Part shown: positions 46,346 through 64,000 of the stretch, piece after piece | Numbering within the stretch: the first letter of the stretch is position 1 | Layout of the letters: every line of letters begins with the position of its first letter | Origin: Escherichia phage vB_EcoM_Lutter | Strand: one strand, 5' to 3' | DNA: 64,000 nucleotides | Sequence record: NC_054924.1 | Translations under genes and position numbers: made by a program | Notes under the pieces: generated by a model | The model's input: the letters and a program-made list of their open reading frames with translations, nothing else | The model's database searches: none | What the model was told of the DNA's origin: nothing

Positions 46346-46599
46346 AAGTCCTCAACTTGAAAATCGTCTTTAAACAATCGGTTAACTATATGAGCTATTA
46401 TATCACCATGACACGGCTTTGGTTTACATGTGCATCCTAGCCTCATTCCACGTAAAGGCTCTAAATGTGCTTTAGTTATTTCTCCGGATTTAATTCGACG
46501 TATAAAATCTTTTTTTGAATAATTCAATGGCAGCCTCCCGGCTGCCAGCATCTTTACCGACGTAATTTCCCCAAAATGTACCGCGGTGAATATTAACAT
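46336..46599 (-). CDS. Hypothetical protein (nrdA.1 position)
   Basis: ATG at 46599 (ORF-track start 46602 is TTG); contains CTCKPKPCHGD Cys/His cluster. Confidence 0.55.
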   Translation of the reverse strand: MLIFTAVHFGEITSVKMLAAGRLPLNYSKKDFIRRIKSGEITKAHLEPLRGMRLGCTCKPKPCHGDIIAHIVNRLFKDDFQVEDLCN

Positions 46600-46616
46600 C
46601 AAAGTCGGATTTGTAT

Positions 46617-46880
46617 TTATTCACTACCCGACATAGACGGCCCGCGCGGTGATAATTCGGCATATTGTTTTTCCGTTAATACAGTAATATCGTAGTAACA
46701 GTCAGAAGAAGTTTTAACTGTGGAAATTTTATTGTCAAAATATTCACGAGTCATTGTATGAGTATAGTATTTTTTACCATAAATGATAATAGGCTGTTCT
46801 GGTCCTGGAACTTCTAACTCGCTTGGGTTAGGAAGTGTAAAAAGAACAACGCCAGAAGTATCTTTAAATCGTAAAATCAT
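46617..46880 (-). CDS. Hypothetical protein (nrdA.2 position)
   Basis: 87 aa ORF. Confidence 0.5.
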
Positions 46881-47188
46881 ATTGCCATTTTCCCTTTAAT
46901 TGCTGGATGCGATTCATAATTTTCAAGGATAAAATCTTTCGGTTTCATGTATTCAGTTAACCAGTAAAGCTGTGTTTCGGTGTCACAATTTCCAAACTCT
47001 ATAGGCCAATCAATTTTAAGTTCACACAGTTCTTTAGGCTCACGACGTAAAATTTCTTTACATTGCTCAGTATGATTCATATAGATGTGAGTATTACCAC
47101 CAGAAAATATCAAATCTCCTGGGATAAGATTACACATCTTAGCCACAATATGTGTCAAGGCAGCGTACGAGGCAATGTTGAACGGTAG
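46877..47188 (-). CDS. td: Thymidylate synthase, exon 2
   Basis: Exon begins CTACCGTTC (LPFNIASY...) directly after intron 3' end CATAATG; with exon 1 gives 286 aa. Confidence 0.9.
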
Positions 47189-48204
47189 CATTATGTTCAG
47201 ATAAGGTCGTTAATCTTACCCCGGAATTATATCCAGCTACATGTCACCATGCAGAGCAGACTATATCTCCAACTTGTTAAAGCAAGTTGTCTATCGTTTC
47301 GAGTCACTTGACCCTACTCCCCAAAGGGATAGTCGTTAGGCATTTATGTAGAACCAATTCCATTTATCAGATTTTACACGATAAGTAACTAATCCAGACG
47401 AAATTTTAAAATGTCTAGCTGCATCTGCTGCACATTCAAAAATAACCCCATCACATGAAATCTTTTTAATATTACTAGGCTTTTTACCTTTCATCTTTTC
47501 TGATATTTTAGATTTAGTTATGTCTGAATGCTTATGATTAAAGAATGAATTATTTTCACCTGAACGATTTCTGCATTTACTACAAGTATAAGCAGAAGTT
47601 TGTATGCGAACACCGCACTTACAAAACTTATGGATTTCTGGATTCCAACGCCCATTTTTACTTCCGGGTTTACTGTAAAGAGCTTTCCGACCATCAGGTC
47701 CAAGTTTAAGCATCTTAGCTTTAACAGTTTCAGAACGTTTCTTAATAATTTCTTCTTTTAATGGATGCGTAGAACATGTATCACCAAACGTTGCATCAGC
47801 AATATTGTATCCATTAATTTTAGAATTAAGCTCTTTAATCCAAAAATTTTCTCGTTCAATAATCAAATCTTTCTCATATGGAATTTCTTCCAAAATAGAA
47901 CATTCAAACACATTACCATGTTTGTTAAAAGACCTCTGAAGTTTTATAGAAGAATGGCATCCTTTTTCTAAATCTTTAAAATGCCTCTTCCATCTCTTTT
48001 CAAAATCTTTAGCACTTCCTACATATACTTTATTGTTTAAAGTATTTTTAATCTGATAAATTCCGCTTTTCATAAATACCTCTTTGAATATAGAAGTATT
48101 TATTAAAGGGCAGTCCTACAATTTAGCACGGGATTGTCTACTAGAGAGTTTCCCCGTTTAGATAGATTACAAGTATAAGTCACCTTATACTCAGGCCTCA
48201 ATTA
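47189..48204 (-). mobile_element. Group I self-splicing intron in td (1016 nt) carrying I-TevI
   Basis: 5' end TAATTGAGGCCTGAGTATAAGGTGACTTATACTTG after exon GGGT; 3' end CATAATG; both ends as recalled for the T4 td intron. Confidence 0.92.
47336..48073 (-). CDS. I-TevI: I-TevI GIY-YIG homing endonuclease (intron-encoded)
   Basis: 245 aa; GIY-YIG motif GIYQIKNTLNNKVYVGSA; C-terminal zinc finger and DNA-binding domain; recognised as T4 I-TevI. Confidence 0.93.
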   Translation of the reverse strand: MKSGIYQIKNTLNNKVYVGSAKDFEKRWKRHFKDLEKGCHSSIKLQRSFNKHGNVFECSILEEIPYEKDLIIERENFWIKELNSKINGYNIADATFGDTCSTHPLKEEIIKKRSETVKAKMLKLGPDGRKALYSKPGSKNGRWNPEIHKFCKCGVRIQTSAYTCSKCRNRSGENNSFFNHKHSDITKSKISEKMKGKKPSNIKKISCDGVIFECAADAARHFKISSGLVTYRVKSDKWNWFYINA

Positions 48205-48753
48205 ACCCAAGAAAACATCTACCGAACGTTGATACCACTGCAAATCCAAATAACCATTACGCACATTAAACTGATAGAACATATGACAGGGCGGTAATGC
48301 CATTTGATTGATTTCAGCTGGATTCCATGCTGAAACGATTTGACGTCGATCAGTTGGTAATTTTTTAATACGATCAATAGTTTCAACTAATTGATCCACA
48401 CCACCGAAATCACGCCATTGTTTACCGTATATAGGACCAAGTTCACCACTATGATATCCTAGGTCTTTAGCTTGGTTTTCATAATTGTCATCCCAGATAG
48501 TTTTACCTTGAATAAGACTACCGTGAGTAAGAAGACGTAAATCATTAACATTGGTAGAACCGGAAATAAACCATAGAAGCTCAGCAATGCATGCATTCCA
48601 GGCGAGCTTCTTAGTTGTTACTGCAGGAAAACCTTTAGTTAAATCCCATCGTAATTTAGTACCGAACAAAGCAATTGTTCCTGTGCCCGTTCGGTCATCG
48701 GTTTCATAGCCATTTTCAAAAATGTCTTTAATTAAATCTTGGTATTGTTTCAT
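48205..48753 (-). CDS. td: Thymidylate synthase, exon 1
   Basis: 183 codons ending ...VDVFLG with terminal U before intron; TS active-site motif PPCH. Confidence 0.93.
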
Positions 48754-48798
48754 TTAGTACCTTATATAAATTATAATACATTTTATGAAGCTGAATAA

Positions 48799-49146
48799 TC
48801 AATACGGTTTAGCATCAAATTTTCTCTCAATTTCAGGTGTGAAATATAATTCTTTACCGCGTTTGGAAAAGCGACCAATAATATGATAATTATTCTCATC
48901 AAACGTGATATTACCAATATCCATAGCTTTCAACCAAATATCGATATTTCTATCCAGCTTTATGTCAAAATTCCAATACGGAGAACTATTACCGAAAATA
49001 CTACAAGCGGATTCAGTGAAACAGCTACTATAAATCTTGTCTTTAGGAACTACTAATTGATAGACACCTTTAATAAACTGAGGACCTTGCCATTTTGGCT
49101 GTTTCTCGTCTTTTTCTAATAGAATAGGGTAATAATTAAAATTCAT
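48799..49146 (-). CDS. Hypothetical protein inserted between frd and td
   Basis: 115 aa ORF with ATG start occupying a gap where frd and td overlap in T4. Confidence 0.6.
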   Translation of the reverse strand: MNFNYYPILLEKDEKQPKWQGPQFIKGVYQLVVPKDKIYSSCFTESACSIFGNSSPYWNFDIKLDRNIDIWLKAMDIGNITFDENNYHIIGRFSKRGKELYFTPEIERKFDAKPY

Positions 49147-49165
49147 ATTTCCGCCACGCGTTATT

Positions 49166-49986
<821 letters not shown>

Positions 49987-49995
49987 TATATTTCC

Positions 49996-50238
49996 TCAAA
50001 CAGACTTTTTCACAATTTTCCAATCAGCTTTAAACTGTTCAACGTCAGAATGGTAAATCCAGAATCCTGCGCTTTCTCCGTCTTCATAAAGCGGACACCC
50101 ATCACATTCATCTTCCCATCCCATATTACGCAAAAGATGTTCAGCTTTTTCAACAAGTTCAGAATCTTTACCGATGATATTAAAATACCATTTACCTTTA
50201 ACTTCCGAATCTTTGATGCTCTGACGTTGTAATCTCAT
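49996..50238 (-). CDS. Hypothetical protein (frd.2 position)
   Basis: 80 aa ORF with AAGGAGAA SD. Confidence 0.55.
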   Translation of the reverse strand: MRLQRQSIKDSEVKGKWYFNIIGKDSELVEKAEHLLRNMGWEDECDGCPLYEDGESAGFWIYHSDVEQFKADWKIVKKSV

Positions 50239-50248
50239 TTTATTCTCC

Positions 50249-50317
50249 TTAGCAAGCTTTAATCAAAAGATATAAACAGACCAACATAACTGCTGCCATA
50301 ATATAAGGTGCGAACAT
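50249..50317 (-). CDS. Candidate 22-aa hydrophobic micro-protein
   Basis: ATG with GGAG SD 8 nt upstream; translation MFAPYIMAAVMLVCLYLLIKAC; lies between an early promoter and the next ORF. Confidence 0.25.
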   Translation of the reverse strand: MFAPYIMAAVMLVCLYLLIKAC

Positions 50318-50347
50318 TTTCTTTTCTCCATTAGTTTTGATAGGGTA

Positions 50348-50377
50348 ATAGTATCACACTACTACCCTTCTGTAAAC
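50348..50377 (-). promoter_or_regulatory. T4-type early promoter
   Basis: Minus strand GTTTAC, 18 nt spacer, TACTAT. Confidence 0.45.
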
Positions 50378-50739
50378 TACTTTTTGAAAGTTTTTCGCAA
50401 AAGTTCAATGATTTCATCTACATTGTTTTCGTCTACAATGCAGTGAATTTTTGTTACGCCAGAAACCTTGTCTTCTATTTCATCTTCAGAAGTCGGTTCT
50501 TTATACTCACGAAAACAATGAAATTCATCTTCGCAGACGTTGAAGTAAAAATGCTTTCCATTGGCGCATTCTACGTGTTTTACTACTTTAAATCCATCAG
50601 CAAAGAAAACTTCTTTAACTTCAAACCATCCGCCATTTTCTTGAATAGCTTTAACTATTAATGAATTAGAACGCGGGCGATAATTAATAAATGTATCAAT
50701 AAGTCTTGGAACAAGTTCGTACTTTTTATCAATATACAT
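50377..50739 (-). CDS. Hypothetical protein (frd.3 position)
   Basis: 120 aa ORF, GAGGAAAA SD. Confidence 0.6.
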   Translation of the reverse strand: MYIDKKYELVPRLIDTFINYRPRSNSLIVKAIQENGGWFEVKEVFFADGFKVVKHVECANGKHFYFNVCEDEFHCFREYKEPTSEDEIEDKVSGVTKIHCIVDENNVDEIIELLRKTFKK

Positions 50740-50783
50740 TATGTTTTCCTCATTTTAATAGGGGCTTGATAGCCCCTCGATAA

Positions 50784-51014
50784 TTACTGTTCAATCAATC
50801 CCATGTAAAATTCTGCATCTTCAGCATCCATACCATCACAGTATTCATTAGCCATAAATCGTTCAAGAACTTCTAAAGGACCTTCAATAACAATAGAAAA
50901 ATTGCAATAATTGGGATCATCATGAATACTTGTGATACTAAGTTCAGGATAACGATTACGAATAATTTCTTCAATATATTCAAAATCAACGATGTCAATA
51001 TCAACTTTAGCCAT
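50784..51014 (-). CDS. Hypothetical acidic protein
   Basis: ATG at 51014 with AAGAGGAAAA SD (ORF-track start 51035 is an upstream ATG without SD); 76 aa. Confidence 0.55.
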
Positions 51015-51057
51015 ATTGTTTTCCTCTTTAATCATCAGCAGTATTGCCGATAGTTGT

Positions 51058-51087
51058 ATAGTACCATAAAGCTTTATGCTTGTAAAC
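51058..51087 (-). promoter_or_regulatory. T4-type early promoter
   Basis: Minus strand GTTTAC, 18 nt spacer, TACTAT; upstream of ORF 50784..51014. Confidence 0.45.
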
Positions 51088-51107
51088 CGTTTTGTGAAAA
51101 AATTTTT

Positions 51108-51137
51108 GAAATAAAAAAGGGGACCTCTAGGGTCCCC
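51108..51137 (-). terminator. Rho-independent terminator after gene 32
   Basis: GGGGACC-tcta-GGGTCCCC hairpin followed by TTTTTTAT on the minus strand. Confidence 0.75.
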
Positions 51138-51159
51138 AATTAATTAGTAATATAATCTA

Positions 51160-52068
51160 TTAAAGGTCATTCAAAAGGTCATCCAGGTCCGTGTCATCAG
51201 CACTAGATGAACTGCCAGAGCTTGAGCTCATAAAATCATCTTCAGTTTTTGTATTGAAGTCATCAACATTGAATGCATCCAAATCATCAGCAACTTTATC
51301 AGCTTTCTTAGCAGCAGTTGCTGCGGCACCACCCATAGCAGCAGTTCCCATAACTTGACTGAACTTAGTGCTCAGTTCTTCAAACGATTTGAATTTATCT
51401 TTAGAAGTCATTTCAGAAAGGTCAACCATTTGTTCGAACAGTTCTTTCTGGAAAGATTCATCATCAATGTTTGGAATCGCAGATTGATTCAGGAATTTAG
51501 ATTCGTCGTAGTTACTAAAACCAGAAACTTGTTTAACTTTCAGTACAAAGTTAGCACCTTCCCACGGACAAGTTACATCAACCGGAGTTTCACCCATTTC
51601 AACATCAACTGCAATCATTGCATTGATTTTATCCCAGATTTTCTTACCGAAGCGGTATTTAAATACTTTACCTTCATTTTCTGGAGCAGCTGGGTCTTTT
51701 ACAACAAGAATGTTAGCCCAGTAAGAAGTTTTGCGTTTAACAAGACTGTACTCTTTATTGTCAGTGTTGTACAAATCATTTTTACTGATGTACTGACATA
51801 CTGGACAAGAATCGTAATCACCGTGGGTAGATGAACACGTTTCAATATACCATTTGCCATTTTTCTTGAAACCGTGATTTACAAGAATTGCAAATGGTGC
51901 TTGTTCATCATTTTTAGACGGAAGAAAACGAATTACTGCTTGACCGTTACCCGCATTGTCGAGTTTCAGTTTCCACTCGCCTTTATCTTCAGAAGAAAAA
52001 CCACCTTTATTTCCAGCCAGTTTAGCCATTTGTGCAGCGAGTTCAGCAGTAGATTTACGTTTAAACAT
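51160..52068 (-). CDS. 32: Single-stranded DNA-binding protein gp32
   Basis: 302 aa; acidic C-terminal tail [22 protein letters not shown]; recognised as T4 gp32. Confidence 0.97.
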
Positions 52069-52140
52069 TTTTATTTCCTTTTTAATTTAATTAACAGTTG
52101 GTGCTATGACGATGTATGACCTCATAGCTGGTCAGTGAGA
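52069..52140 (-). promoter_or_regulatory. Gene 32 mRNA leader (site of the gp32 translational operator)
   Basis: About 70-nt AT-rich untranslated leader between promoters and the gene 32 ATG. Confidence 0.4.
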
Positions 52141-52142
52141 TA

Positions 52143-52167
52143 ATTATAATCTATTTATAATAAGCAA
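52143..52167 (-). promoter_or_regulatory. MotA-dependent middle promoter with overlapping late TATAAATA, upstream of gene 32
   Basis: Minus strand TTGCTTA (MotA box), 12 nt, TATAAT; the spacer itself contains TATAAATA (52152..52159). Confidence 0.55.
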
Positions 52168-52821
52168 TTAATACTTGCAAGATTTCACAGTTTCAATAAA
52201 AACATTTTTAGCTTTCTGTGAATCAATATTTAAAATTTTTCTATAAGCCTTTAACTTTATAGAATAATTATTCCAGACTAAATTATCAGTCTGTTCATCA
52301 TGTTTATCAATTATATTTAAAAACGAATCAAGCAAGATAAACGTTTCAAACGAAATTATATTCGACTGAAGCAGTTTAAAAATATAACTTGATTGAACCT
52401 TTGGATTATATTCAAAGATTTCTTTAAAAGCAGAAACTTCAACTTTTTTACTAAAATAATAAATGTTGCGAATATCTTCTTCAAACTTAAATTTAATTTG
52501 CTTTAAGCGTCCGATATATTCACGATAAAACACAAGTGCATCAGCGTCAGAGATGTCACCAATCCAAGCATCTTGGTTAGCAACAAGATTGCTTATAAAG
52601 ATTAAAGCAAGTTCCTTTAATTTATATTTTTCTGATAACTTCTGGAAAAAATACTTATCCCTTCGCTTTTGATAAGCGGCATCAGACACCCGCATGCACC
52701 AATTATACTTAATTACATCATACTTTCCATTCATATGTTGTTTTATCATTAAGTATAATTTATAAACTGATTTACCATCAATATATCTTTCACCACCAGC
52801 AGGCATGCGGAGTTTAATCAT
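52168..52821 (-). CDS. 59: Helicase loader gp59
   Basis: 217 aa; position between 33 and 32 as in T4. Confidence 0.93.
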   Translation of the reverse strand: MIKLRMPAGGERYIDGKSVYKLYLMIKQHMNGKYDVIKYNWCMRVSDAAYQKRRDKYFFQKLSEKYKLKELALIFISNLVANQDAWIGDISDADALVFYREYIGRLKQIKFKFEEDIRNIYYFSKKVEVSAFKEIFEYNPKVQSSYIFKLLQSNIISFETFILLDSFLNIIDKHDEQTDNLVWNNYSIKLKAYRKILNIDSQKAKNVFIETVKSCKY

Positions 52822-53156
52822 AATAGAAAATCTAATGTATTAGTTTTTTCACAACGAACAACAGAAGGACGTAAAAGATTTTCGTCAATAGCTTCTGACT
52901 GAATTTTTTCAATTATACCCGAAGGAATAAATTTAGCAAATTGAGTTTCAGGAATAGAATTTTCTTCCAAGAATGCTGTTGTAGCTTCAAGATAACTCAT
53001 TCCAAACTCTTCTACCATTTTTTCAATAATAAATCCATTTTCTTGGCGGTCAAGAAGCTTTGCAATTTCATCCTTTTCTTTCTTAATTGAGAGTTCTTTT
53101 TCTGAAAGACCGGTCTCATCGACCGGGCGAATATCATTTAGAGAAAACTGTGTCAT
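52818..53156 (-). CDS. 33: Late transcription co-activator gp33
   Basis: ATG at 53156 gives 112 aa (ORF-track start 53165 is TTG). Confidence 0.85.
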   Translation of the reverse strand: MTQFSLNDIRPVDETGLSEKELSIKKEKDEIAKLLDRQENGFIIEKMVEEFGMSYLEATTAFLEENSIPETQFAKFIPSGIIEKIQSEAIDENLLRPSVVRCEKTNTLDFLL

Positions 53157-53403
53157 AAAGTTCAACTACCTCTTCAGTTTCAGCTTCAAACACATCACGA
53201 TTATCTTTATGATACAAAGCTAATAGACGATTAAACATCTTACCATCAACGCCAAGTTCATCTTTGGCACGAATTCGAATATCTTTAATCAATTCATTAT
53301 AACCAGAAATTTTCAGTTTATGATCAGATGCTTCTTTAATAAATTTAGCCAAGTCTTCGCCGTGGATAGCTTCATCAAATTCAACCATTTCTTTTTTAGC
53401 CAT
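53134..53403 (-). CDS. dsbA: DsbA double-stranded DNA-binding protein
   Basis: 89 aa ORF overlapping the start of gene 33, as in T4. Confidence 0.8.
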   Translation of the reverse strand: MAKKEMVEFDEAIHGEDLAKFIKEASDHKLKISGYNELIKDIRIRAKDELGVDGKMFNRLLALYHKDNRDVFEAETEEVVELYDTVFSK

Positions 53404-53411
53404 TATTCACC

Positions 53412-54329
53412 TCAAAATTCATTAATGCTATTAGTTAATTTAGAAAGACCCGCTTTTACAAAATATGAATAAATTTTGCCACGCGGTGGTAATTTATATG
53501 AATTATAGTAATTCACAATGTTTGAAGCAATATTATCAGGAATATAATCAAAATCAATTAGAACTAAATTTTCTTTATAACGATTATATTCAGATTCTGT
53601 GAGAAGCACCTTAGCTTGCTCACGGTCATTAGCAATAGCTTCAACGATTGAAGTTTTCATTGAAGGAGTTCGTTCGCCTTCAACTCTAGTAAACCAAAAA
53701 TCAGACCGCACTTTAACTGAAGCAACGTTATCCTTTTTGTCGCCTTTAAGGATTTTAGTCATACAGTCAATTTCAGCAGAACCGCTTTTAATTTTAACCC
53801 ATTTCTTGTGCATCGGTGACCATTGCTTAACATTTGGATATTTGTGAAGTTGAGTAAAGTCACCATCCGATGAAATGATTAAAATCTTATGTCCTTCTAA
53901 AGAGAACTTTTTAACCAAAACAGCAATATGGTCATCTGCTTCATACTTATCAATATCCATAACGATGTATGGCATATAAGCTTTCAATTCATCTATAACT
54001 TTATGACTGGATTCAAAATAACCTTCCCAGTCCCAAGTAGATTCTTCTCGTGCTTTTCCACGGTTTTTCTTATAATAATAAGCAAAATCACGACGCCAAT
54101 ATCCAGATTTCGCGTTATCAATACACAATACAATTTTAGTGTATCCAAGAGCTTTTGCTTTTTTGACATTAAACTTAATTGAGTTCAATATCAAATGACG
54201 AACCATTGATAAATTAATTTTTTCTTTATCTGGGAAGTTTACCAAAGCAGTTGAAAGCGCAATTTGACTAAAGTCAATTAAGCAGATTCCTTCTTTGTAA
54301 TCTTCATCCAGCATCATTTCTAAATCCAT
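53412..54329 (-). CDS. rnh: RNase H (5'-3' exonuclease / flap endonuclease)
   Basis: ATG at 54329 with GAGG SD gives 305 aa (ORF-track start 54344 is TTG); recognised as T4 RNase H. Confidence 0.93.
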   Translation of the reverse strand: MDLEMMLDEDYKEGICLIDFSQIALSTALVNFPDKEKINLSMVRHLILNSIKFNVKKAKALGYTKIVLCIDNAKSGYWRRDFAYYYKKNRGKAREESTWDWEGYFESSHKVIDELKAYMPYIVMDIDKYEADDHIAVLVKKFSLEGHKILIISSDGDFTQLHKYPNVKQWSPMHKKWVKIKSGSAEIDCMTKILKGDKKDNVASVKVRSDFWFTRVEGERTPSMKTSIVEAIANDREQAKVLLTESEYNRYKENLVLIDFDYIPDNIASNIVNYYNSYKLPPRGKIYSYFVKAGLSKLTNSINEF

Positions 54330-54358
54330 ATGAACCTCGTTCAATTAGTGAGATTTCT

Positions 54359-54388
54359 ATTATATACCATCCGAATCTTAAAGTAAAC
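54359..54388 (-). promoter_or_regulatory. T4-type early promoter for rnh
   Basis: Minus strand GTTTAC, 18 nt spacer, TATAAT; the -35 abuts the plus-strand late promoter of gene 34. Confidence 0.55.
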
Positions 54389-54391
54389 AAG

Positions 54392-54399
54392 TATAAATA
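54392..54399 (+). promoter_or_regulatory. Late promoter TATAAATA upstream of gene 34
   Basis: Exact TATAAATA 35 nt upstream of the gene 34 ATG. Confidence 0.55.
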
Positions 54400-54433
54400 C
54401 TTATTATTGAAAACACAATAGGAGCCCGGGAGA

Positions 54434-57400
54434 ATGGCCGAGATTAAAAGAAAGTTCAGAGCAGAAGATGGTCTGGACGCAGGTGGTGATAAAATAATCA
54501 ACGTAGCTTTAGCTGATCGTACCGTAGGAACTGACGGCGTTAACGTTGATTACCTAATTCAAGAAAACACAGTTCAACAATACGATCCAACTCGTGGATA
54601 TTTAAAAGATTTTGTAATCATTTATGATAACCGCTTTTGGGCTGCTATAAATGATATTCCAAAACCGGCAGGAGCTTTTAATAGCGGGCGCTGGAGAGCA
54701 TTACGTACCGATGCTAACTGGATTACAGTCTCATCTGGTTCATATCAATTAAAATCAGGTGAAGCTATTTCGGTTAACACTGCAGCTGGTAATGATATTA
54801 CATTTACTTTACCATCTACTCCAATTGACGGTGATACTATCGTTCTCCAAGATATTGGAGGAAAACCTGGAGTTAACCAAGTTTTAATTGTAGCTCCAGT
54901 GCAAAGTATTGTAAACTTCAGAGGCGAGCAAGTACGTTCAGTACTAATGACTCATCCAAAGTCACAGCTAGTTTTAATTTTTAGTAATCGTCTGTGGCAA
55001 ATGTATGTTGCTGATTATAGTAGAGAAGCTATAGTTGTAACACCAGCGAATACTTATCAAGCGCAATCCAACGATTTTATCGTACGTAGATTTACTTCTG
55101 CTGCACCGATAAATATTAAACTTCCGAGATTTGCTAATCATGGCGATATTATTAATTTCGTTGATTTAGATAAACTGAATCCACTTTATCATACAATTGT
55201 TACTACATACGATGAAACGACTTCAGTACAAGAAGTTGGAACTCATTCCATTGAAGGCCGTACATCTATTGACGGTTTCTTGATGTATGACGATAATGAG
55301 AAATTATGGAGATTATTTGACGGGGACAGTAAAGCACGTTTACGTATCATAACAACTAATTCAAACATTCGTCCAAATGAAGAAGTTATGGTATTTGGTG
55401 CGAATAATGGAACAACTCAGACAATTGAGCTTAAGCTTCCAACTAATATTTCTGTTGGTGATACTGTTAAAATTTCCATGAATTACATGAGAAAAGGACA
55501 AACAGTTAAAATCAAAGCTGCTGATGAAGATAAAATTGCTTCTTCAGTTCAATTGCTGCAATTCCCAAAACGCTCAGAGTATCCACCTGAAGCTGAATGG
55601 GTGACTGTTCAAGAATTAGTTTTTAACGGTGAAACTAATTATGTTCCAGTTTTGGAGCTTGCTTACATAGAAGATTCTGATGGAAAATACTGGGTTGTAC
55701 AGCAAAATGCTCCAACTGTAGAAAGAGTTGATTCTTTAAACGATTCTACTAGAGCAAGATTAGGCGTGATTGCTTTAGCTACACAAGCTCAAGCTAATGC
55801 CGATTTAGAAAATTCTCCACAAAAAGAATTAGCAATTACTCCAGAAACATTAGCTAACCGTACTGCTACAGAAACTCGTAGAGGTATCGCAAGAATAGCA
55901 ACTACTGCTCAAGTAAACCAGGATACTACATTCTCTTTTGCTGACGATATTATCATCACTCCTAAAAAGCTGAATGAAAGAACTGCTACAGAAACTCGCA
56001 GAGGTGTCGCAGAAATTGCTACGCAGCAAGAAACTAATGCAGGTACTGATGATACAACCATCATTACTCCTAAAAAGCTTCAAGCTCGCCAAGGTTCTGA
56101 ATCATTATCTGGTATTGTAACTTTTGTATCTACTGCAGGTGCTACTCCAGCTTCTAGCCGTGAATTAAATGGTACAAACGTTTATAATAAAAACACTAAT
56201 AATTTAGTTGTTTCACCTAAAGCTTTAGACCAGTATAAAGCTACTCCAACACAGCAAGGTGCAGTAATTTTAGCAGTTGAAAGTGAAGTAATTGCTGGAC
56301 AAAGTCAGGAAGGATGGGCAAATGCTGTTGTAACGCCAGAAACGTTACATAAAAAGACATCAACTGATGGAAGAATTGGTTTAATTGAAATTGCTACACA
56401 AAGTGAAGTTAATACGGGAACTGATTATACTCGTGCAGTCACTCCTAAAACTTTAAATGACCGTAGAGCAACTGAAAGTTTAAGTGGTATAGCTGAAATT
56501 GCTACACAAGTTGAATTCGACGCAGGCGTCGACGATACTCGTATCTCTACACCATTAAAAATTAAAACCAGATTTAATAGTACTGATCGTACTTCTGTTG
56601 TTGCTCTATCTGGATTAGTTGAATCAGGAACTCTCTGGGACCATTATACCCTTAATATTCTTGAAGCAAATGAGACACAGCGTGGTACACTTCGTGTAGC
56701 TACACAGGTTGAAGCTGCTGCAGGAACATTAGATAATGTTTTAATAACTCCTAAAAAGCTTTTAGGTACTAAATCTACTGAAGCACAGGAAGGTGTTATT
56801 AAAGTTGCAACCCAGTCTGAAACTGTGGCTGGAACGTCAGCAAATACTGCTGTATCTCCAAAAAATTTAAAATGGATTGTGCAGAGTGAACCTACCTGGG
56901 CAGCTACTACTGCGATAAGAGGTTTTGTTAAAACTTCATCTGGTTCAATTACATTCGTTGGTAATGATACAGTCGGTTCTACCCAAGATTTAGAACTATA
57001 TGAGAAAAATAGCTATGCAGTATCACCATATGAATTAAACCGTGTATTAGCAAATTATTTGCCGTTAAAAGCAAAAGCTGCTGATACAAATTTATTGGAT
57101 GGTCTAGATTCATCTCAGTTCATTCGTAGGGATATTGCACAGACGGTTAATGGTTCACTAACCTTAACCCAGCAAACGAATCTGAGTGCCCCTCTTGTAT
57201 CATCTAGTACTGCTACGTTTGGTGGATCAGTTTCGGCAAATAGTACATTAACTATTTCTAATACTGGAACGGCAACTCGTCTGATTTTTGAGAAAGGACC
57301 TCAAACTGGAACTAACCCAGCACAGACGATGACTATCAGAGTTTGGGGAAATCAGTTTGGCGGCGGTTCAGATACAACACGTTCTACTGTATTTGAAGTT

Positions 57401-58303
57401 GGTGATGAAACATCTAATCACTTTTATTCTCAACGTAATAAAGCTGGGAATATAACGTTTAGTATTAATGGTACTGTGATGCCAATAAATGTTAACGCTT
57501 CCGGTTCATTGAATGCGAATGGCGTAGCAACATTTGGTAGTTCAGTTACTGCTAATGGTGAATTCATTAGCAAGTCTGCAAATGCTTTCAGAGCAATAAA
57601 CGGTGATTATGGATTCTTTATTCGCAATGATGCTGCTAATACCTATTTTATGCTCACTGCATCCGGTGATCAGACCGGTGGATTTAATGGATTACGTCCA
57701 TTATCAATTAATAATCAATCCGGTCAAGTCACAATTGGTGAAAGCTTAATCATTGCCAAAGGTGCTACTATAAATTCAGGTGGTTTGACTGTTAACTCGA
57801 GAATTCGTTCTCAGGGTACTAAAACATCTGATTTATATACCCGTGCGCCAACATCTGATACTGTAGGATTCTGGTCAATTGATATTAATGATTCAGCTAC
57901 TTATAACCAGTTCCCGGGTTATTTTAAAATGGTTGAAAAAACTAATGAAGTGACTGGGCTTCCATACTTAGAACGTGGCGAAGAAGTTAAATCTCCTGGT
58001 ACACTGACTCAGTTTGGTAACACACTTGATTCGCTTTACCAAGATTGGATTACTTATCCAACGACGCCAGACGCGCGTACCACTCGCTGGACACGTACAT
58101 GGCAGAAAACCAAAAACTCTTGGTCAAGTTTTGTTCAGGTATTTGATGGAGGTAACCCTCCTCAGCCGTCTGATATTGGTGCTTTACCATCTGATAATGC
58201 TACAATGGGGAATCTTACTATTCGTGATTTCTTGCGAATTGGTAATGTTCGCATTGTTCCTGACCCAGTGAATAAATCTGTTAAATTTGAATGGGTTGAA
58301 TAA
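54434..58303 (+). CDS. 34: Long tail fiber proximal subunit gp34
   Basis: 1289 aa; internal repeated TPKKL...ATE...IATQ motifs; same length as T4 gp34. Confidence 0.95.
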   Translation: MAEIKRKFRAEDGLDAGGDKIINVALADRTVGTDGVNVDYLIQENTVQQYDPTRGYLKDFVIIYDNRFWAAINDIPKPAGAFNSGRWRALRTDANWITVSSGSYQLKSGEAISVNTAAGNDITFTLPSTPIDGDTIVLQDIGGKPGVNQVLIVAPVQSIVNFRGEQVRSVLMTHPKSQLVLIFSNRLWQMYVADYSREAIVVTPANTYQAQSNDFIVRRFTSAAPINIKLPRFANHGDIINFVDLDKLNPLYHTIVTTYDETTSVQEVGTHSIEGRTSIDGFLMYDDNEKLWRLFDGDSKARLRIITTNSNIRPNEEVMVFGANNGTTQTIELKLPTNISVGDTVKISMNYMRKGQTVKIKAADEDKIASSVQLLQFPKRSEYPPEAEWVTVQELVFNGETNYVPVLELAYIEDSDGKYWVVQQNAPTVERVDSLNDSTRARLGVIALATQAQANADLENSPQKELAITPETLANRTATETRRGIARIATTAQVNQDTTFSFADDIIITPKKLNERTATETRRGVAEIATQQETNAGTDDTTIITPKKLQARQGSESLSGIVTFVSTAGATPASSRELNGTNVYNKNTNNLVVSPKALDQYKATPTQQGAVILAVESEVIAGQSQEGWANAVVTPETLHKKTSTDGRIGLIEIATQSEVNTGTDYTRAVTPKTLNDRRATESLSGIAEIATQVEFDAGVDDTRISTPLKIKTRFNSTDRTSVVALSGLVESGTLWDHYTLNILEANETQRGTLRVATQVEAAAGTLDNVLITPKKLLGTKSTEAQEGVIKVATQSETVAGTSANTAVSPKNLKWIVQSEPTWAATTAIRGFVKTSSGSITFVGNDTVGSTQDLELYEKNSYAVSPYELNRVLANYLPLKAKAADTNLLDGLDSSQFIRRDIAQTVNGSLTLTQQTNLSAPLVSSSTATFGGSVSANSTLTISNTGTATRLIFEKGPQTGTNPAQTMTIRVWGNQFGGGSDTTRSTVFEVGDETSNHFYSQRNKAGNITFSINGTVMPINVNASGSLNANGVATFGSSVTANGEFISKSANAFRAINGDYGFFIRNDAANTYFMLTASGDQTGGFNGLRPLSINNQSGQVTIGESLIIAKGATINSGGLTVNSRIRSQGTKTSDLYTRAPTSDTVGFWSIDINDSATYNQFPGYFKMVEKTNEVTGLPYLERGEEVKSPGTLTQFGNTLDSLYQDWITYPTTPDARTTRWTRTWQKTKNSWSSFVQVFDGGNPPQPSDIGALPSDNATMGNLTIRDFLRIGNVRIVPDPVNKSVKFEWVE
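55862..55891 (+). repeat. Intragenic repeat unit in gene 34 (copy 1)
   Basis: ACTGCTACAGAAACTCGTAGAGGTATCGCA, 28/30 identical to 55982..56011; encodes a repeated TATETRRG motif. Confidence 0.6.
55982..56011 (+). repeat. Intragenic repeat unit in gene 34 (copy 2)
   Basis: ACTGCTACAGAAACTCGCAGAGGTGTCGCA, 120 nt downstream of copy 1. Confidence 0.6.
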
Positions 58304-58311
58304 GAGGTATT

Positions 58312-59427
58312 ATGGAAAAATTTATGGCAGAGTTTGGACAAGGATATGTCCAAACGCCATTTTTATCGGAAAGTAATTCAGTAAGATATAAAATAAGTAT
58401 AGCGGGTTCTTGCCCGCTTTCTACAGCAGGACCATACGTTAAATTTCAGGATAATCCTGTAGGAAGTCAAACATTTAGCGCAGGACTTCATTTAAGAGTT
58501 TTTGACCCTTCCACCGGAGCATTAGTTGATAGTAAGTCATATTCTTTTTCGACTTCAAATGATACTACATCAGCTGCTTTTGTTAGTTTCATGAATTCTT
58601 TGGCGAATAACAGACTTGCTGCTATATTAACTAGCGGAAAGGTTAATTTTCCTCCTGAAGTAGTATCTTGGTTAAGAACCGCAGGAACGTCTGCTTTTCC
58701 ATCTGATTCTATATTGTCAAGATTCGACGTGTCATATGCTGCTTTTTATACTTCTTCTAAAAGAGCTATTGCATTAGAGCATGTTAAACTGAGTAATAGA
58801 AAAAGCACAGATGATTATCAAACTATTTTAGATGTTGTATTTGACAGTTTAGAAGATGTAGGAGCTACCGGGTTTCCAAGAAGAACGTATGAAAGCGTTG
58901 AGCAATTCATGTCGGCAGTTGGCGGAACTAATAACGAAATTGCGCGTCTACCAACTTCAGCTGCGATAAGTAAATTATCTGACTATAATTTAATCCCTGG
59001 TGATGTTCTTTATCTTAAAGCACAGTTATATGCCGACGCCGATTTACTTGCGCTTGGAACTACGAATATATCCATTCGATTTTATAATGCATCTAACGGA
59101 TATATTTCTTCAACACAGGCTGAATTTACCGGGCAAGCTGGTTCTTGGGAATTAAAAGAAGATTATGTGGTTGTTCCAGAAAACGCTGTCGGATTTACGA
59201 TATATGCACAGAGAACTGCGCAAGCTGGTCAAGGTGGCATGAGAAATTTAAGCTTTTCTGAAGTGTCAAGAAATGGAGGTATTTCGAAACCTGCTGAATT
59301 TGGCGTCAATGGTATTCGAGTTAATTATGTCTGTGAATCCGCTTCACCTCCGGATATAATGGTACTTCCTACACAAGCATCGTCTAAAACTGGTAAAGTG
59401 TTTGGACAAGAATTTAGAGAAGTATAA
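58312..59427 (+). CDS. 35: Long tail fiber hinge connector gp35
   Basis: 371 aa; position between 34 and 36. Confidence 0.9.
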   Translation: MEKFMAEFGQGYVQTPFLSESNSVRYKISIAGSCPLSTAGPYVKFQDNPVGSQTFSAGLHLRVFDPSTGALVDSKSYSFSTSNDTTSAAFVSFMNSLANNRLAAILTSGKVNFPPEVVSWLRTAGTSAFPSDSILSRFDVSYAAFYTSSKRAIALEHVKLSNRKSTDDYQTILDVVFDSLEDVGATGFPRRTYESVEQFMSAVGGTNNEIARLPTSAAISKLSDYNLIPGDVLYLKAQLYADADLLALGTTNISIRFYNASNGYISSTQAEFTGQAGSWELKEDYVVVPENAVGFTIYAQRTAQAGQGGMRNLSFSEVSRNGGISKPAEFGVNGIRVNYVCESASPPDIMVLPTQASSKTGKVFGQEFREV

Positions 59428-59432
59428 ATTGA

Positions 59433-59456
59433 GGGAGCCTTCGGGCTCCCTTTTTC
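59433..59456 (+). terminator. Rho-independent terminator after gene 35
   Basis: GGGAGCC-ttcg-GGCTCCC hairpin followed by TTTTT. Confidence 0.7.
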
Positions 59457-59458
59457 TT

Positions 59459-59466
59459 TATAAATA
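59459..59466 (+). promoter_or_regulatory. Late promoter TATAAATA upstream of gene 36
   Basis: Exact TATAAATA 24 nt upstream of the gene 36 ATG, immediately after the terminator. Confidence 0.55.
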
Positions 59467-59489
59467 CTATTAAAATAAAGGGGCATACA

Positions 59490-60155
59490 ATGGCTGATTT
59501 AAAAGTAGGTTCAACAACTGGAGGCTCTGTCATTTGGCATCAAGGAAATTTTCCATTGAATCCAGCCGGTGACGATGTACTCTATAAATCATTTAAAATA
59601 TATTCAGAATATAATAAACCACAGGCAACTGATAACGATTTCGTTTCTAAAGCTAATGGTGGTACTTATGCATCAAAGGTAACATTTAACGGTGGCGTAC
59701 AAGTTCCGTATGCTATAAACAACACAAACCAATGTGGTATTTATCCAGGTAACGGTGATAATGCTACTTTTGCTGTAGCAAATATTGATATTGTTTCGTG
59801 GAATGGTATTGGTTTTAAATCATCACAAGGTTCAGCAGACCGAACTGTTGTAATTAATGCACGTAATGGTGATATTAGTACAAAAGGCGTTGTGACAGCA
59901 GTAGGTCAAATAAGAAGTAATGCAGTTTCTCCTGTATCAGCAAATGACCTTACTAGAAAGGACTATGTTGATGGAGCAATAAATACTGTTACGGCAAATG
60001 CGAACTCTAGGGTGCTACGGTCTGGTGACACCATGACAGGTAATTTAACCGCACCAAACTTTTTCTCGCAGAATCCTGCGTCTCAACCTTCACACGTTCC
60101 ACGATTTGACCAAATCGTAATTAAGGATTCTGTTCAAGATTTCGGCTATTATTAA
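59490..60155 (+). CDS. 36: Long tail fiber distal connector gp36
   Basis: 221 aa; same length as T4 gp36. Confidence 0.9.
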   Translation: MADLKVGSTTGGSVIWHQGNFPLNPAGDDVLYKSFKIYSEYNKPQATDNDFVSKANGGTYASKVTFNGGVQVPYAINNTNQCGIYPGNGDNATFAVANIDIVSWNGIGFKSSQGSADRTVVINARNGDISTKGVVTAVGQIRSNAVSPVSANDLTRKDYVDGAINTVTANANSRVLRSGDTMTGNLTAPNFFSQNPASQPSHVPRFDQIVIKDSVQDFGYY

Positions 60156-60163
60156 GAGGACTT

Positions 60164-63100
60164 ATGGCTACTTTAAAACAAATACAATTTAAAAGAAGCA
60201 AAACCGCAGGTGCACGTCCTGCTGCTTCAGTATTAGCCGAAGGCGAATTGGCTATAAACTTAAAAGATAGAACAATTTTTACTAAAGATGATTCAGGAAA
60301 TATCATTGACTTAAGCATTTCCGCTGGCGGTAATATCAGTGGAAATATCACTCAAACTGGTGATTATACACAGACTGGAAAATTTAATTTAATTGGTCCA
60401 CAAATTGTAGCAAGTGGTGGATATATTGAGTTTAATTATCGTACTACTGGAAGTGGGGCTTGGTCCGGTCAACACACTGCAAAAGCTCCAATTTTTGTAG
60501 ATTTAAGCTCAGCTACTTCCACATCTGAATATAATCCTATAATTAAACAGCGCTTTAAAGATGGAACTTTTTCATTAGGTACTTTAGTTTCTGAAGGTTC
60601 GTTAAAGATTCATTATATTGATGAAACTGGTCAATCTAAATATTGGACATTTGCGCGCTCAGGTAATTTTCAAGTTGATTCTGGTAATTTATTAGTATCT
60701 GGTGGGTATTTAGTCGCTCAGAGTAATATTGAAACAAGAACAGGTTCTTTGATTGGTCCATCTGTTGTAACTAAAAATATTTCATTTGATACGAAAGCGT
60801 TTGGACAATATGATTCGCAGTCATTAGTTCAATATGTTTATCCTGGAACTGGTGAAACAAACGGAATTAATTACCTTCGTAAATTCCGTGCAAAATCCGG
60901 TGGTACGATTTATCATGAATTAGCTTCTGCACAAACCGGAAAAAGTGATGAACTGTCTTGGTGGACCGGTAATACAGCCGTTAATAAACAAATGGGCCTT
61001 CGCAATGATGGGTCTTTAGTATTGCGACGCTCACTCGCAATTGGTACAATTACAACAGATGAAAACATTAATAATTACGGCTCCACTGGAGCAATGGGTG
61101 AATGCTATATAGTCATTGGAGATGCCGCAACTGGTATATCATATAAAAGATCTGGTGTATATGATTTAGTTGCTAATGGTCTTTCTATCGCGTCTATTAC
61201 TCCTGACAGTTTCCGTAGTACTCGTAAAGCATTATTTGGACGCTCAGAAGATCAAGGTACAACATGGATTATGCCTGGAACGAATGCTGCATTTTTATCA
61301 GTTCAAACACAGGCTGATGAAAACGGTGCTGGAGACGGTCAGACACATATTGGCTATAATTCAGGCGGAAAAATGAACCACTATTTCCGCGGCAAAGGCA
61401 AAACTAATATTAATACTCAAGAAGGCATGGAAGTTAACCCGGGTATTCTTAAAATAGTAACCGGTGCAAATAATGTAATGTTTTATGCTGATGGCGGTAT
61501 TACATCCACTAAGCAGCTTTCAATATATAATGGTGTATATTTAGCAGCTAATAATTCTACTGCTGGGCTAACATTCGCTCCAACTACTACAGTTGATGGC
61601 ACTAAGCAAATTTTGTGGGAAGGTGGTAAGCGCGCTGGACAGAATAAAAGCTATGTAACTGTTAAAGCGTGGGGTAATTCATTTAACGCATCTGGCGATC
61701 GTAATCGTGAAACAGTTTTTGAAGTAGCTGACGGACAAGGTTATTATTTTTATGCGCAGCGTGTAGCTCCTGCATCAGGTTCAACAACTGGAGTAATTCA
61801 ATTTAGAATTGCTGGAGCATTATTAACCGGTGGGGGTATTACATCATCAGGTTCTATTGTTACTGAGTCAAGTTTAGTTGCAAATAATGGATTGTCTGTA
61901 AATGGACAAGCTAAATTTGGTGGAACAGCAGATGCATTAAGAATTTGGAATGCTGAATACGGTGCTATTTTCCGCCGTTCGGAAACTAACTTTTATATTA
62001 TTCCAACTTTACAAAATGCTGGAGAATCGGGCGGTATAAGTAATTTACGCCCATTTACCATCAATCTCGCAAATGGTAGTGTTATGATGGGCAATCATAC
62101 ACAAGCCGGAAAAAATTTGCTTACTATTGATAACGTATCAAAATTCGTTCAAACCGATGTTAGACTTCGAGTTAATATGGATTCTGACGCTATTGTGGTA
62201 AATGCTTCATCTCAAGCTGCATCTAACTTTATTCAAGGACGTAAGGCTGATGTTACAAAATGGTATTTAGGTATTGGCGATGGCGGAAACGTCGTTCGTA
62301 TGCATAATTACACCTACTCTCACGGTATTGCATTAAACTCTGATACTGTCGATATTACTAAGCCTCTTAAAATTAATGATATTCGAATTGGTACAGATGG
62401 TAACATCACAGGTGGTACTGGTAATTTTGCTAACTTAAATACAACGTTAAATCGTAAAACCAGCGTGGGCGGTTGGGCTGGTAGTTCTGTTGACGGATGG
62501 TATAAATTTGCTACGGTAACAATTCCTCAGGGTACTGGTACAGTGACTTTTAAGATTTCCGGCGGCGCTGGTTTTAATTTTAAAAGCTATAGCCAAGCTT
62601 CTGTTGCAGAAATAGTTCTTCGCACGGGTAATAATCCTAAAGGCATAAACGCTGTACTGTGGAATAGGTCAGACCTGAGTTTTAATCAGATAGCTACTAT
62701 GAATACATCTGGCGATACTTATGATGTATACGTGTTCTGTGCCGGTTATACAAATGCATTAGTGGTTGAATATTCCTGTAGTGAAAACTCTTCGGTAACC
62801 GTAGTCGGTCTTAACGGAGGCATTCAGCCAGTTGTTGATGCATTGCCTGAGGGACATGTTGTAGGTAAAACAGTTCGTCTGTTAAATAATATTGGCGGAA
62901 CTTTCGCAGCTGGAGAATCTAACATTGTTACTCGCGGTGAATACGTTACTGATAATCAAAAAGGCATGCGTATTAAATCTAACGGTAATAATATCGGTTC
63001 TAACGCAGCTTTAATTAGAAATGATGGCGGAAGTTTTTATATTTTAGCTACAGATAAAAATACGGAAGAAAAACCCGATGCAGCTAATGGTGATTGGAAT

Positions 63101-64000
63101 GGCTTAAGACCTTTCTCTATTAATATGACTGATGGCCGCGTTAGTATGAACCACGGGTTGAATATTACTGGCGGTGGATTAAACGTTACTGGTGGTAATA
63201 CTAGCTTAGGTAATATCTCGTCTCGTTTGGTTTCATACGCCCGCGCGCCATCTGGATGGGGAGATACCTCAGATGCCATGAAATCTAAAATCACCTTTAT
63301 GGCAGACCACGGGGATTTATCTAATTCAGACAGTTATTATCCTATTGTCGGTGCATACAGCAACTATGGTTCAGCGGGTTATCGTCAAACATTTGAATTT
63401 GGATGGGTCGGCTCTGGTACCACCGCTGGATGGCGAGAAGGTATTATTCGTATTCGCGGTGATAATGCTAATGGCCAGCAAGCAAGATGGCGATTTACAA
63501 TGGATGGTATTTTAGATTGCCCGGGTAAAGTACAGATGCCACAAACAAGCGCATTTGGCGTCAATACAACAAATGGATGGGGTGGTAACTCCATTGCAAT
63601 TGGTGATAGCAATACTGGTTTTAGACAAGTAGGCGATGGGCTTTTAGAAGCGTGGGCGAACAATGTTAAAGTTGTTAGATTCACCTCAGGTGAAGTTTAT
63701 TCCGAGAAAAACGTTAACGCTCCTAATGTTTACATTCGTTCTGATGTTCGCTTGAAATCTAATTTCAAACCTATTGAAAACGCGCTCGAAAGGGTTGAGC
63801 AACTTGATGGTTTAATCTATGATAAAGCTGAATATATAGGCGGTGAGCCTGTTCAAACTGAAGCGGGTATTATAGCTCAAACGTTGCAAGACGTTTTACC
63901 AGAAGCTGTCCATGAAACAGAAGACAGTAAGGGTAATAAAATACTCACTGTTTCTTCTCAAGCCCAGATTGCTCTTCTGGTTGAAGCTGTGAAAACACTT
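60164..64000 (+). CDS. 37: Long tail fiber distal subunit gp37 (3' end beyond window)
   Basis: ATG at 60164; open frame of 1279 codons to window end with no stop; N-terminus MATLKQIQFKRSK... as T4 gp37; SDVRLK motif near the window end. Confidence 0.9.
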   Translation, partial: MATLKQIQFKRSKTAGARPAASVLAEGELAINLKDRTIFTKDDSGNIIDLSISAGGNISGNITQTGDYTQTGKFNLIGPQIVASGGYIEFNYRTTGSGAWSGQHTAKAPIFVDLSSATSTSEYNPIIKQRFKDGTFSLGTLVSEGSLKIHYIDETGQSKYWTFARSGNFQVDSGNLLVSGGYLVAQSNIETRTGSLIGPSVVTKNISFDTKAFGQYDSQSLVQYVYPGTGETNGINYLRKFRAKSGGTIYHELASAQTGKSDELSWWTGNTAVNKQMGLRNDGSLVLRRSLAIGTITTDENINNYGSTGAMGECYIVIGDAATGISYKRSGVYDLVANGLSIASITPDSFRSTRKALFGRSEDQGTTWIMPGTNAAFLSVQTQADENGAGDGQTHIGYNSGGKMNHYFRGKGKTNINTQEGMEVNPGILKIVTGANNVMFYADGGITSTKQLSIYNGVYLAANNSTAGLTFAPTTTVDGTKQILWEGGKRAGQNKSYVTVKAWGNSFNASGDRNRETVFEVADGQGYYFYAQRVAPASGSTTGVIQFRIAGALLTGGGITSSGSIVTESSLVANNGLSVNGQAKFGGTADALRIWNAEYGAIFRRSETNFYIIPTLQNAGESGGISNLRPFTINLANGSVMMGNHTQAGKNLLTIDNVSKFVQTDVRLRVNMDSDAIVVNASSQAASNFIQGRKADVTKWYLGIGDGGNVVRMHNYTYSHGIALNSDTVDITKPLKINDIRIGTDGNITGGTGNFANLNTTLNRKTSVGGWAGSSVDGWYKFATVTIPQGTGTVTFKISGGAGFNFKSYSQASVAEIVLRTGNNPKGINAVLWNRSDLSFNQIATMNTSGDTYDVYVFCAGYTNALVVEYSCSENSSVTVVGLNGGIQPVVDALPEGHVVGKTVRLLNNIGGTFAAGESNIVTRGEYVTDNQKGMRIKSNGNNIGSNAALIRNDGGSFYILATDKNTEEKPDAANGDWNGLRPFSINMTDGRVSMNHGLNITGGGLNVTGGNTSLGNISSRLVSYARAPSGWGDTSDAMKSKITFMADHGDLSNSDSYYPIVGAYSNYGSAGYRQTFEFGWVGSGTTAGWREGIIRIRGDNANGQQARWRFTMDGILDCPGKVQMPQTSAFGVNTTNGWGGNSIAIGDSNTGFRQVGDGLLEAWANNVKVVRFTSGEVYSEKNVNAPNVYIRSDVRLKSNFKPIENALERVEQLDGLIYDKAEYIGGEPVQTEAGIIAQTLQDVLPEAVHETEDSKGNKILTVSSQAQIALLVEAVKTL

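Follow-up and report, generated by a model that had tools for sequence, protein, structure and literature searches.

Most T-even phages have long tail fibers of the T2 type, with T4 representing the minority (PMC3157838, PMC6851490). For T2 and T6, PMC3157838, which cites Drexler et al. 1986, describes a C-terminal proteolytic cleavage of gp37 after which the fiber is capped by gp38. In T4, by contrast, the protein called gp38 is an unrelated chaperone that is absent from the virion. The sections of PMC7917993 and Dunne et al. [quoted passage not shown] IMC domains common to the S16 and T5 fibers and the K1F spike aid trimerization before autoproteolysis (PMC7289586), and in pb1 of T5 the nucleophile Ser1264 is activated by Lys1269, with a correctly formed trimer needed for cleavage (PMC4690869). 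In fibers of this kind, the IMC does for gp37 the job of the T4 gp38 chaperone (PMC7289586, PMC7917993, PMC3157838). The feature discussed below is therefore an already known one: its processing has been on record since 1986 and its structure since 2018, and its domains are in Pfam. We conclude with high confidence that gene 37 of Escherichia phage vB_EcoM_Lutter encodes such a T2-type distal long tail fiber subunit, carrying a self-cleaving IMC and capped by a gp38 adhesin.

The window, i.e., the whole stretch of 64,000 nucleotides analyzed, is a Tequatrovirus segment whose first 20 kb are 97 to 98% identical to many T4-like phages of E. coli, Shigella, and Yersinia; Rfam (at the gathering threshold) and a tRNA scan gave no matches anywhere in it. 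All features given below with window coordinates lie on the + strand. The tail fiber block 34-35-36-37 opens with gene 34 (54434..58303), the proximal half-fiber subunit of 1,289 amino acids (aa), which was taken from the open reading frame list, has its exact protein on the public contig L009 (see below), and matches Gp34_trimer and Gp34_2nd in Pfam. It is followed by gene 35 (58312..59427), the hinge connector of 371 aa, listed as an open reading frame and syntenic with the annotated gp35 of T2 and CrRp10, and by gene 36 (59490..60155), the distal connector of 221 aa, also from the list, for the identical product of which the Pfam family Phage_T4_gp36 is recorded. The ATG of gene 37 is found at position 60164, eight bases past the stop of gene 36, and its translation stays open through the last base of the window (60164..64000), amounting to 1,279 codons. 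This order is the one annotated in T4, T2, and CrRp10.

The end of the window removes the last 12 codons of gene 37 (SARVKELESKLM) and its stop. The downstream sequence was taken from L009, a contig of 27.7 kb in the Logan assembly of SRR12226697, which was found by looking up the exact gp34 and is 100.000% identical to window positions 44434 to 64000 (19,567 nt, no gaps). Its gp37 agrees with the window at all 1,279 positions and ends 12 residues later, so that the complete protein has 1,291 aa, and all the Tequatrovirus relatives compared likewise end 12 residues past the point at which the window stops. The exact gp37 sequence is, accordingly, already present in a public assembly. The same kind of look-up for gp35 returned no record, even though L009 encodes a gp35 of 371 aa, and we read this as a gap in the index.

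The original prediction had taken T4 as the point of reference, stating that gene 37 is still open beyond the length of T4 gp37 and that only its N-terminus is T4-like. The first statement holds (1,279 codons versus 1,026 aa). The second is too narrow, as the likeness spans roughly aa 1 to 650, the N-terminal half of the protein, and is essentially gone after about aa 750. BLASTP aligned the two proteins at 48% identity over 882 columns; by blocks of 50 aa, identity was 96% in aa 1 to 50, low in aa 51 to 200, and 46 to 86% in aa 201 to 650; beyond aa 750 it was no more than 0 to 28% per block, and beyond aa 1050 it was zero. Based on BLASTP, block identity, and Pfam, we assign the half in common with T4 gp37 (aa 1 to 650; 60164..62113), which occupies the same locus in both phages, to the gp36-binding end and the proximal shaft, with a Gp34_trimer-type domain in Pfam at aa 508 to 633. 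The next part (aa 651 to 1138; 62114..63577) is a distal shaft of the T2/CrRp10 type without counterpart in T4 gp37, as judged from Pfam, the T4 and T2 alignments, and block identity, and it contains a Pfam gp37_trimer match at aa 677 to 750 and a second Gp34_trimer-like repeat at about aa 949 to 995.

The T4-like N-terminal half and the locus order, the same as in T4, are what could be said for a T4-type route, in which a gp38 chaperone absent from the virion would fold gp37, and the receptor would be bound by the C-terminus of gp37 itself. However, the Collar and Phage_fiber matches that Pfam gives for T4 gp37 are both missing from the Lutter protein, nothing aligns to T4 gp37 past about aa 750, and the C-terminal collar, needle, and head receptor-binding domain of T4 have no equivalent here. 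Conversely, Pfam finds no Peptidase_S74 in T4 gp37.

The apt comparator is T2, not T4. Lutter gp37 aligns end to end with T2 gp37 (1,341 aa, i.e., 50 aa longer) at 76% identity and 83% positives over 1,331 columns, and the T2 protein has the same IMC, with Pfam Peptidase_S74 at T2 aa 1243 to 1300. Since T2 gp37 is itself long, IMC bearing, and 76% identical, the extra length over T4 is normal for a T2-type phage. Common to both is an IMC of 99 aa following ...NVYIR^SD(I/V)RLK, and within aa 1201 to 1291, almost the entire IMC, identity is 80 to 100% per 50-aa block. The two proteins differ in aa 651 to 750, which are only 22 to 44% identical and where Lutter has a segment of the CrRp10 type, and in the tip region (aa 1151 to 1200), at 68% identity. 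In its architecture, Lutter gp37 follows the common T2 type and represents no departure from known T-even biology.

Near the window end, the original prediction had pointed to an S-D-x-R-x-K autocleavage site followed by a Peptidase_S74 region. The peptide quoted there is found in the translation (...NVYIR-SDVRLKSNF...GLIYDKAEYIGGEPVQTEAGIIAQTLQDVLPEAV), and the Ser1193 codon begins exactly at position 63740, where the feature had been made to start. The motif S-D-V-R-L-K, read from the sequence, occupies 63740..63757, with the putative nucleophile Ser1193 at 63740-63742 and the putative general base Lys1198 at 63755-63757, and SDxRxK occurs only once in gp37. From Ser1193 on, the Pfam family PF13884 (Peptidase_S74, "Chaperone of endosialidase") matched over its full profile (positions 1 to 58 of 58) with an E value of 8.3e-14 and 52.1 bits, against a curated cutoff of 22 bits, delimiting the IMC core (aa 1193 to 1250; 63740..63913). 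With the C-terminal 167 aa alone the E value was 3.8e-15. A Pfam search of the C-terminus had been suggested as a check in the original prediction; the match is significant in the partial protein and unchanged in the complete one of 1,291 aa. A chance motif was considered and rejected, the PF13884 E values lying far beyond chance, and the Pfam match together with the single SDxRxK confirms the earlier observation. The remainder of the domain (aa 1251 to 1279, ...KILTVSSQAQIALLVEAVKTL; 63914..64000) was delimited by the alignments and L009, with 12 more residues past the window, and the IMC as a whole comprises the last 99 of the 1,291 residues, from Ser1193 to Met1291, directly after the beta-helix-homologous tip. 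This length of 99 aa is constant in all the Tequatrovirus relatives compared, and in an alignment of six gp37 proteins the S, D, R, and K columns of the motif are invariant.

The predicted scissile bond is Arg1192/Ser1193 (NVYIR^SDVRLK; 63737..63742), which aligns with the S16 site (DLNVS^SDRRIKK) and also fits the site of the fPS phages (DVYIR^SDGRLKI; PMC7917993). Lysine stands at +5 from the serine, the same spacing as in T5 pb1 (Ser1264/Lys1269) and at the K1F site. If cut there, gp37 would release a fragment of 99 aa with a computed mass of 10.9 kDa, and the 137.6-kDa precursor would be reduced to a mature protein of 126.8 kDa.

The IMC-like domain could instead be a relic that no longer cleaves, leaving gp37 at full length, with gp38 binding elsewhere or only helping it to fold. 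The tip before the site does differ from that of T2 (68% identity in aa 1151 to 1200). Nevertheless, we consider a relic very unlikely, because neither of the catalytic residues (Ser and Lys) nor any part of the Pfam profile is missing and because aa 1201 to 1291 are so similar (80 to 100% per block) to T2 gp37, which is experimentally processed (PMC3157838). Moreover, several phages that have been isolated and are viable combine this tip variant with the same IMC. We retain the reading of an active, self-cleaving IMC, in which cleavage of gp37, the chaperone action of the IMC, and the docking of gp38 would proceed as in the T2 and S16 experiments.

The end of the predicted mature protein is the fiber tip (aa 1139 to 1192; 63578..63739), defined by alignment, block identity, and a match to chain A of PDB 6F45, the S16 (gp37)3-gp38 complex, which covers the tip and the cleavage region from aa 1139 on with an E value of 4.2e-8. 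The homologous part of S16 gp37 is the distal beta-helix, which bears the gp38 docking surface. S16, a Gelderlandvirus, shares with Lutter the homologous tip beta-helix, the cleavage motif, the IMC, and a homologous gp38 adhesin with polyglycine motifs. Its gp37, on the other hand, is much shorter (749 aa), its IMC is longer (112 aa versus 99 aa), and 16 extra residues are inserted ahead of its cleavage site; over the last ca. 170 to 200 aa (tip plus IMC), the two proteins are 34% identical.

More distant are the K1F endosialidase and T5 pb1 (PDB 3GW6 and 4UW8), which belong to the same Pfam family, have the Ser and the Lys at +5, and follow the same logic of trimerizing, self-cleaving, and leaving. 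In these two, binding or degradation of the receptor falls to the mature C-terminus itself, while in Lutter this end would be a dock for a separate adhesin. Searches of PDB sequences with phmmer, using the tip plus IMC or the IMC alone, did not reach the K1F (3GW6) or T5 (4UW8) chaperones, so that it is the Pfam profile and the common motif that link Lutter gp37 to these IMCs. The IMC alone gave weak matches to the MYRF ICA domain 7DC3 (E value of 0.017) and to 6F45 (E value of 0.036).

Beyond the window, the gp37 stop on L009 is followed by a spacer of 30 nt (AAGAGGGCTTCGGCCCTCTAAGGATTTTTA) with a UUCG-loop hairpin and a Shine-Dalgarno sequence, then by a gene 38 of 268 aa and the holin gene t. 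The product of this gene 38 is an adhesin. Pfam assigned it to Gp38_N (E value of 8.5e-18) and GP38 (E value of 1.7e-66), and it is 41% identical to the S16 adhesin, for which the structure has been solved (E value of 2e-39), 99.6% identical to gp38 of vB_EcoM_FJ1, and 97% identical to that of vB_EcoM_G8. Similarity to the T4 gp38 chaperone was undetectable (E value of 11). With this identity of the downstream gene (Pfam adhesin, no similarity to T4 gp38), the T4-type chaperone route is rejected, provided that L009 represents the source genome, and we give it practically no chance of being correct.

The order gp37 (with IMC), gp38 (adhesin), and holin t is also annotated in T2, CrRp10, T-01, Phaginator, and S16, and for T2 the identity of gene order extends over 34-35-36-37-38-t. 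The gp37 alleles of CrRp10, SH-1, ESh26, T-01, and Phaginator all have an IMC and a gp38 adhesin downstream. Compared with its T2 counterpart, the Lutter-type gp38 on L009 has a single difference in the attachment domain (the first 44 residues), in which W9, W22, and W37 are all present; overall, the two are only about 60% identical, so the receptor-binding loops differ. As for the other partner, the 68% identity of the tip to T2 makes the docking surface of Lutter a variant. This tip variant (aa 1151 to 1200) is not that of T2 but that of vB_Eco_T-01 and Phaginator, at 98% identity, and these phages have the same type of gp38 N-terminus.

By analogy with the work on K1F, T5, and S16, assembly may be pictured as follows. 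Three IMC copies would associate and nucleate the process by which the beta-helical tip at the C-terminus trimerizes and folds. After this tip has reached its correct fold, Ser1193, with Lys1198 as its activator, would cut the Arg1192-Ser1193 bond, and the 10.9-kDa IMC would depart, leaving the 126.8-kDa mature gp37. The exposed tip would then bind one gp38 through the N-terminal three-tryptophan helical bundle of the adhesin, and the host receptor would be recognized by gp38, not by gp37.

From the C-terminal motif, the original prediction had gone on to suggest a fiber that trimerizes with its own chaperone rather than by the gp38/gp57A route of T4. Part of this stands, as the IMC is real and, by analogy, would replace a chaperone of the T4 gp38 type. 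Gene 38, though, is there, as an adhesin gene immediately downstream of gene 37. Of the combination named at the outset as speaking against the suggestion, a gene 38 immediately downstream of an uncleaved gp37, one half is found, namely the gene, in adhesin form; the gp37 proteins of T2 and S16 are cleaved. In its strongest form, the suggestion would be that, given the IMC, neither gp38 nor gp57A is needed to assemble a functional distal half-fiber. The fiber of T5 pb1, which has an IMC, does fold without separate chaperones (PMC4690869), and cell binding in the absence of accessory proteins was reported for the fiber of one S16-like phage (PMC10175313). Nonetheless, gene 38 is conserved immediately downstream, receptor binding by the T2 and S16 fibers needs coexpression of gp37 and gp38 (PMC10175313), and phages of the T2 type keep gene 57A, whose product is required in T4 for gp34 and gp12 as well (PMC7289586). 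We regard such complete independence as highly improbable and prefer the IMC-bearing, gp38-capped fiber of the T2 type.

Gene 37 of Lutter should be labeled as a T2-type long tail fiber distal subunit with a self-cleaving C-terminal intramolecular chaperone, and the receptor-binding protein should be sought in gp38 rather than in gp37. This bears on the prediction and engineering of host range, as specificity would reside in hypervariable loops of the downstream adhesin, and adhesin swaps would have to keep the gp37 tip paired with a matching gp38 N-terminal domain. Otherwise, its importance is small beyond correct annotation.

As to the origin of the allele, the nearest DNA relatives (ca. 92% identity) are the gene 37 sequences of Shigella phages SH-1, SH-2, and ESh26 and of Citrobacter phage CrRp10, the gp37 of which has 1,292 aa. 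The best gene 37 record reached 92% identity over 97% of the query, and no single record matches throughout. Along the protein, aa 1 to 150 are identical to T2, aa 251 to 1000 are 96 to 100% identical to CrRp10 (50-aa blocks), aa 1001 to 1150 are closest to T2 and to a metagenomic relative (contig L008), and aa 1151 to 1291 are 98 to 100% identical to vB_Eco_T-01 and Phaginator. With this mosaic, the allele is a new recombinant of known types, as expected for the tail fiber genes of T-even phages, and a further example of their well-known recombinational shuffling.

One extension of the preferred reading is that the IMC frees folding of the T2-type distal half-fiber from gp57A and that the recombinant confers a new host range; we think this improbable, if somewhat less so than the alternatives weighed above. 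T2 keeps gene 57A, and the 57A locus of Lutter lies outside the window. If true, gp57A independence and a new host range would extend an already well-described system only incrementally. The recombinant in question combines an N-terminus of the T2 type, a shaft of the CrRp10 type, a tip of the T-01 type, and an adhesin of the FJ1 type. The metagenomic contig L008 represents another relative, which shares the exact gp36 with Lutter, is ca. 92.5% identical in DNA, and encodes a gp37 of 1,332 aa.

Gene 37, which encodes the distal tail-fiber subunit gp37 and extends from position 60164 to the end of the window at 64000 (1,279 of its 1,291 codons), is a patchwork allele. The first 150 residues of the product are identical to those of T2, whereas residues 251 to 1000 match Citrobacter phage CrRp10 at about 96 to 100% identity and residues 1151 to 1291 match vB_Eco_T-01 and Phaginator at 98 to 100%. 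An end-to-end match to this allele was found in no single phage record, and within the phage GenBank collection no sequence matched gene 37 at >92% over its length.

Within gp37, a Gp34_trimer-type module appears in two copies, one at residues 508 to 633 (positions 61685 to 62062) and another at about residues 949 to 995 (positions 63008 to 63148). The core of one copy reads ...ALIRNDGGSFYILATD...LRPFSINMTDGRVSM and that of the other ...AIFRRSETNFYIIPT...LRPFTINLANGSVMM. The same Pfam family is also present in gp34, the proximal half-fiber subunit encoded upstream.

The whole locus was recovered in a public read-set assembly, the Logan contig SRR12226697_0 (L009), which is 100% identical to positions 44434 to 64000; therefore, the source phage or its clone was present in SRR12226697. 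Just past the end of the window, this contig (positions 19607 to 19636) carries the 30-nt spacer between gene 37 and the T2-type adhesin gene 38, AAGAGGGCTTCGGCCCTCTAAGGATTTTTA. The spacer contains a GC-rich hairpin with a perfect 7-bp stem and a UUCG loop, immediately followed by the Shine-Dalgarno sequence of gene 38. For the hinge connector gp35 (371 amino acids, positions 58312 to 59427), an exact-sequence look-up gave no record. The contig lists a 371-amino-acid product at the corresponding position, where it is 100% identical to the window, and the absent record is probably an index gap rather than biology.

Elsewhere in the window, on the minus strand, two ORFs of 183 (48202 to 48753) and 104 (46877 to 47191) amino acids make up a split thymidylate synthase gene (td, positions 46877 to 48753), and between these ORFs sits one for an I-TevI-like GIY-YIG homing endonuclease (245 amino acids, 47336 to 48073). 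A group I intron match at positions 47237 to 47467 scored 37.5 bits (E value of 2e-7, Rfam), short of the Rfam gathering score of 50, and for this reason a default Rfam scan does not report it. Together, the split td gene, the endonuclease ORF, and the putative group I intron look like the classical T4 td intron.
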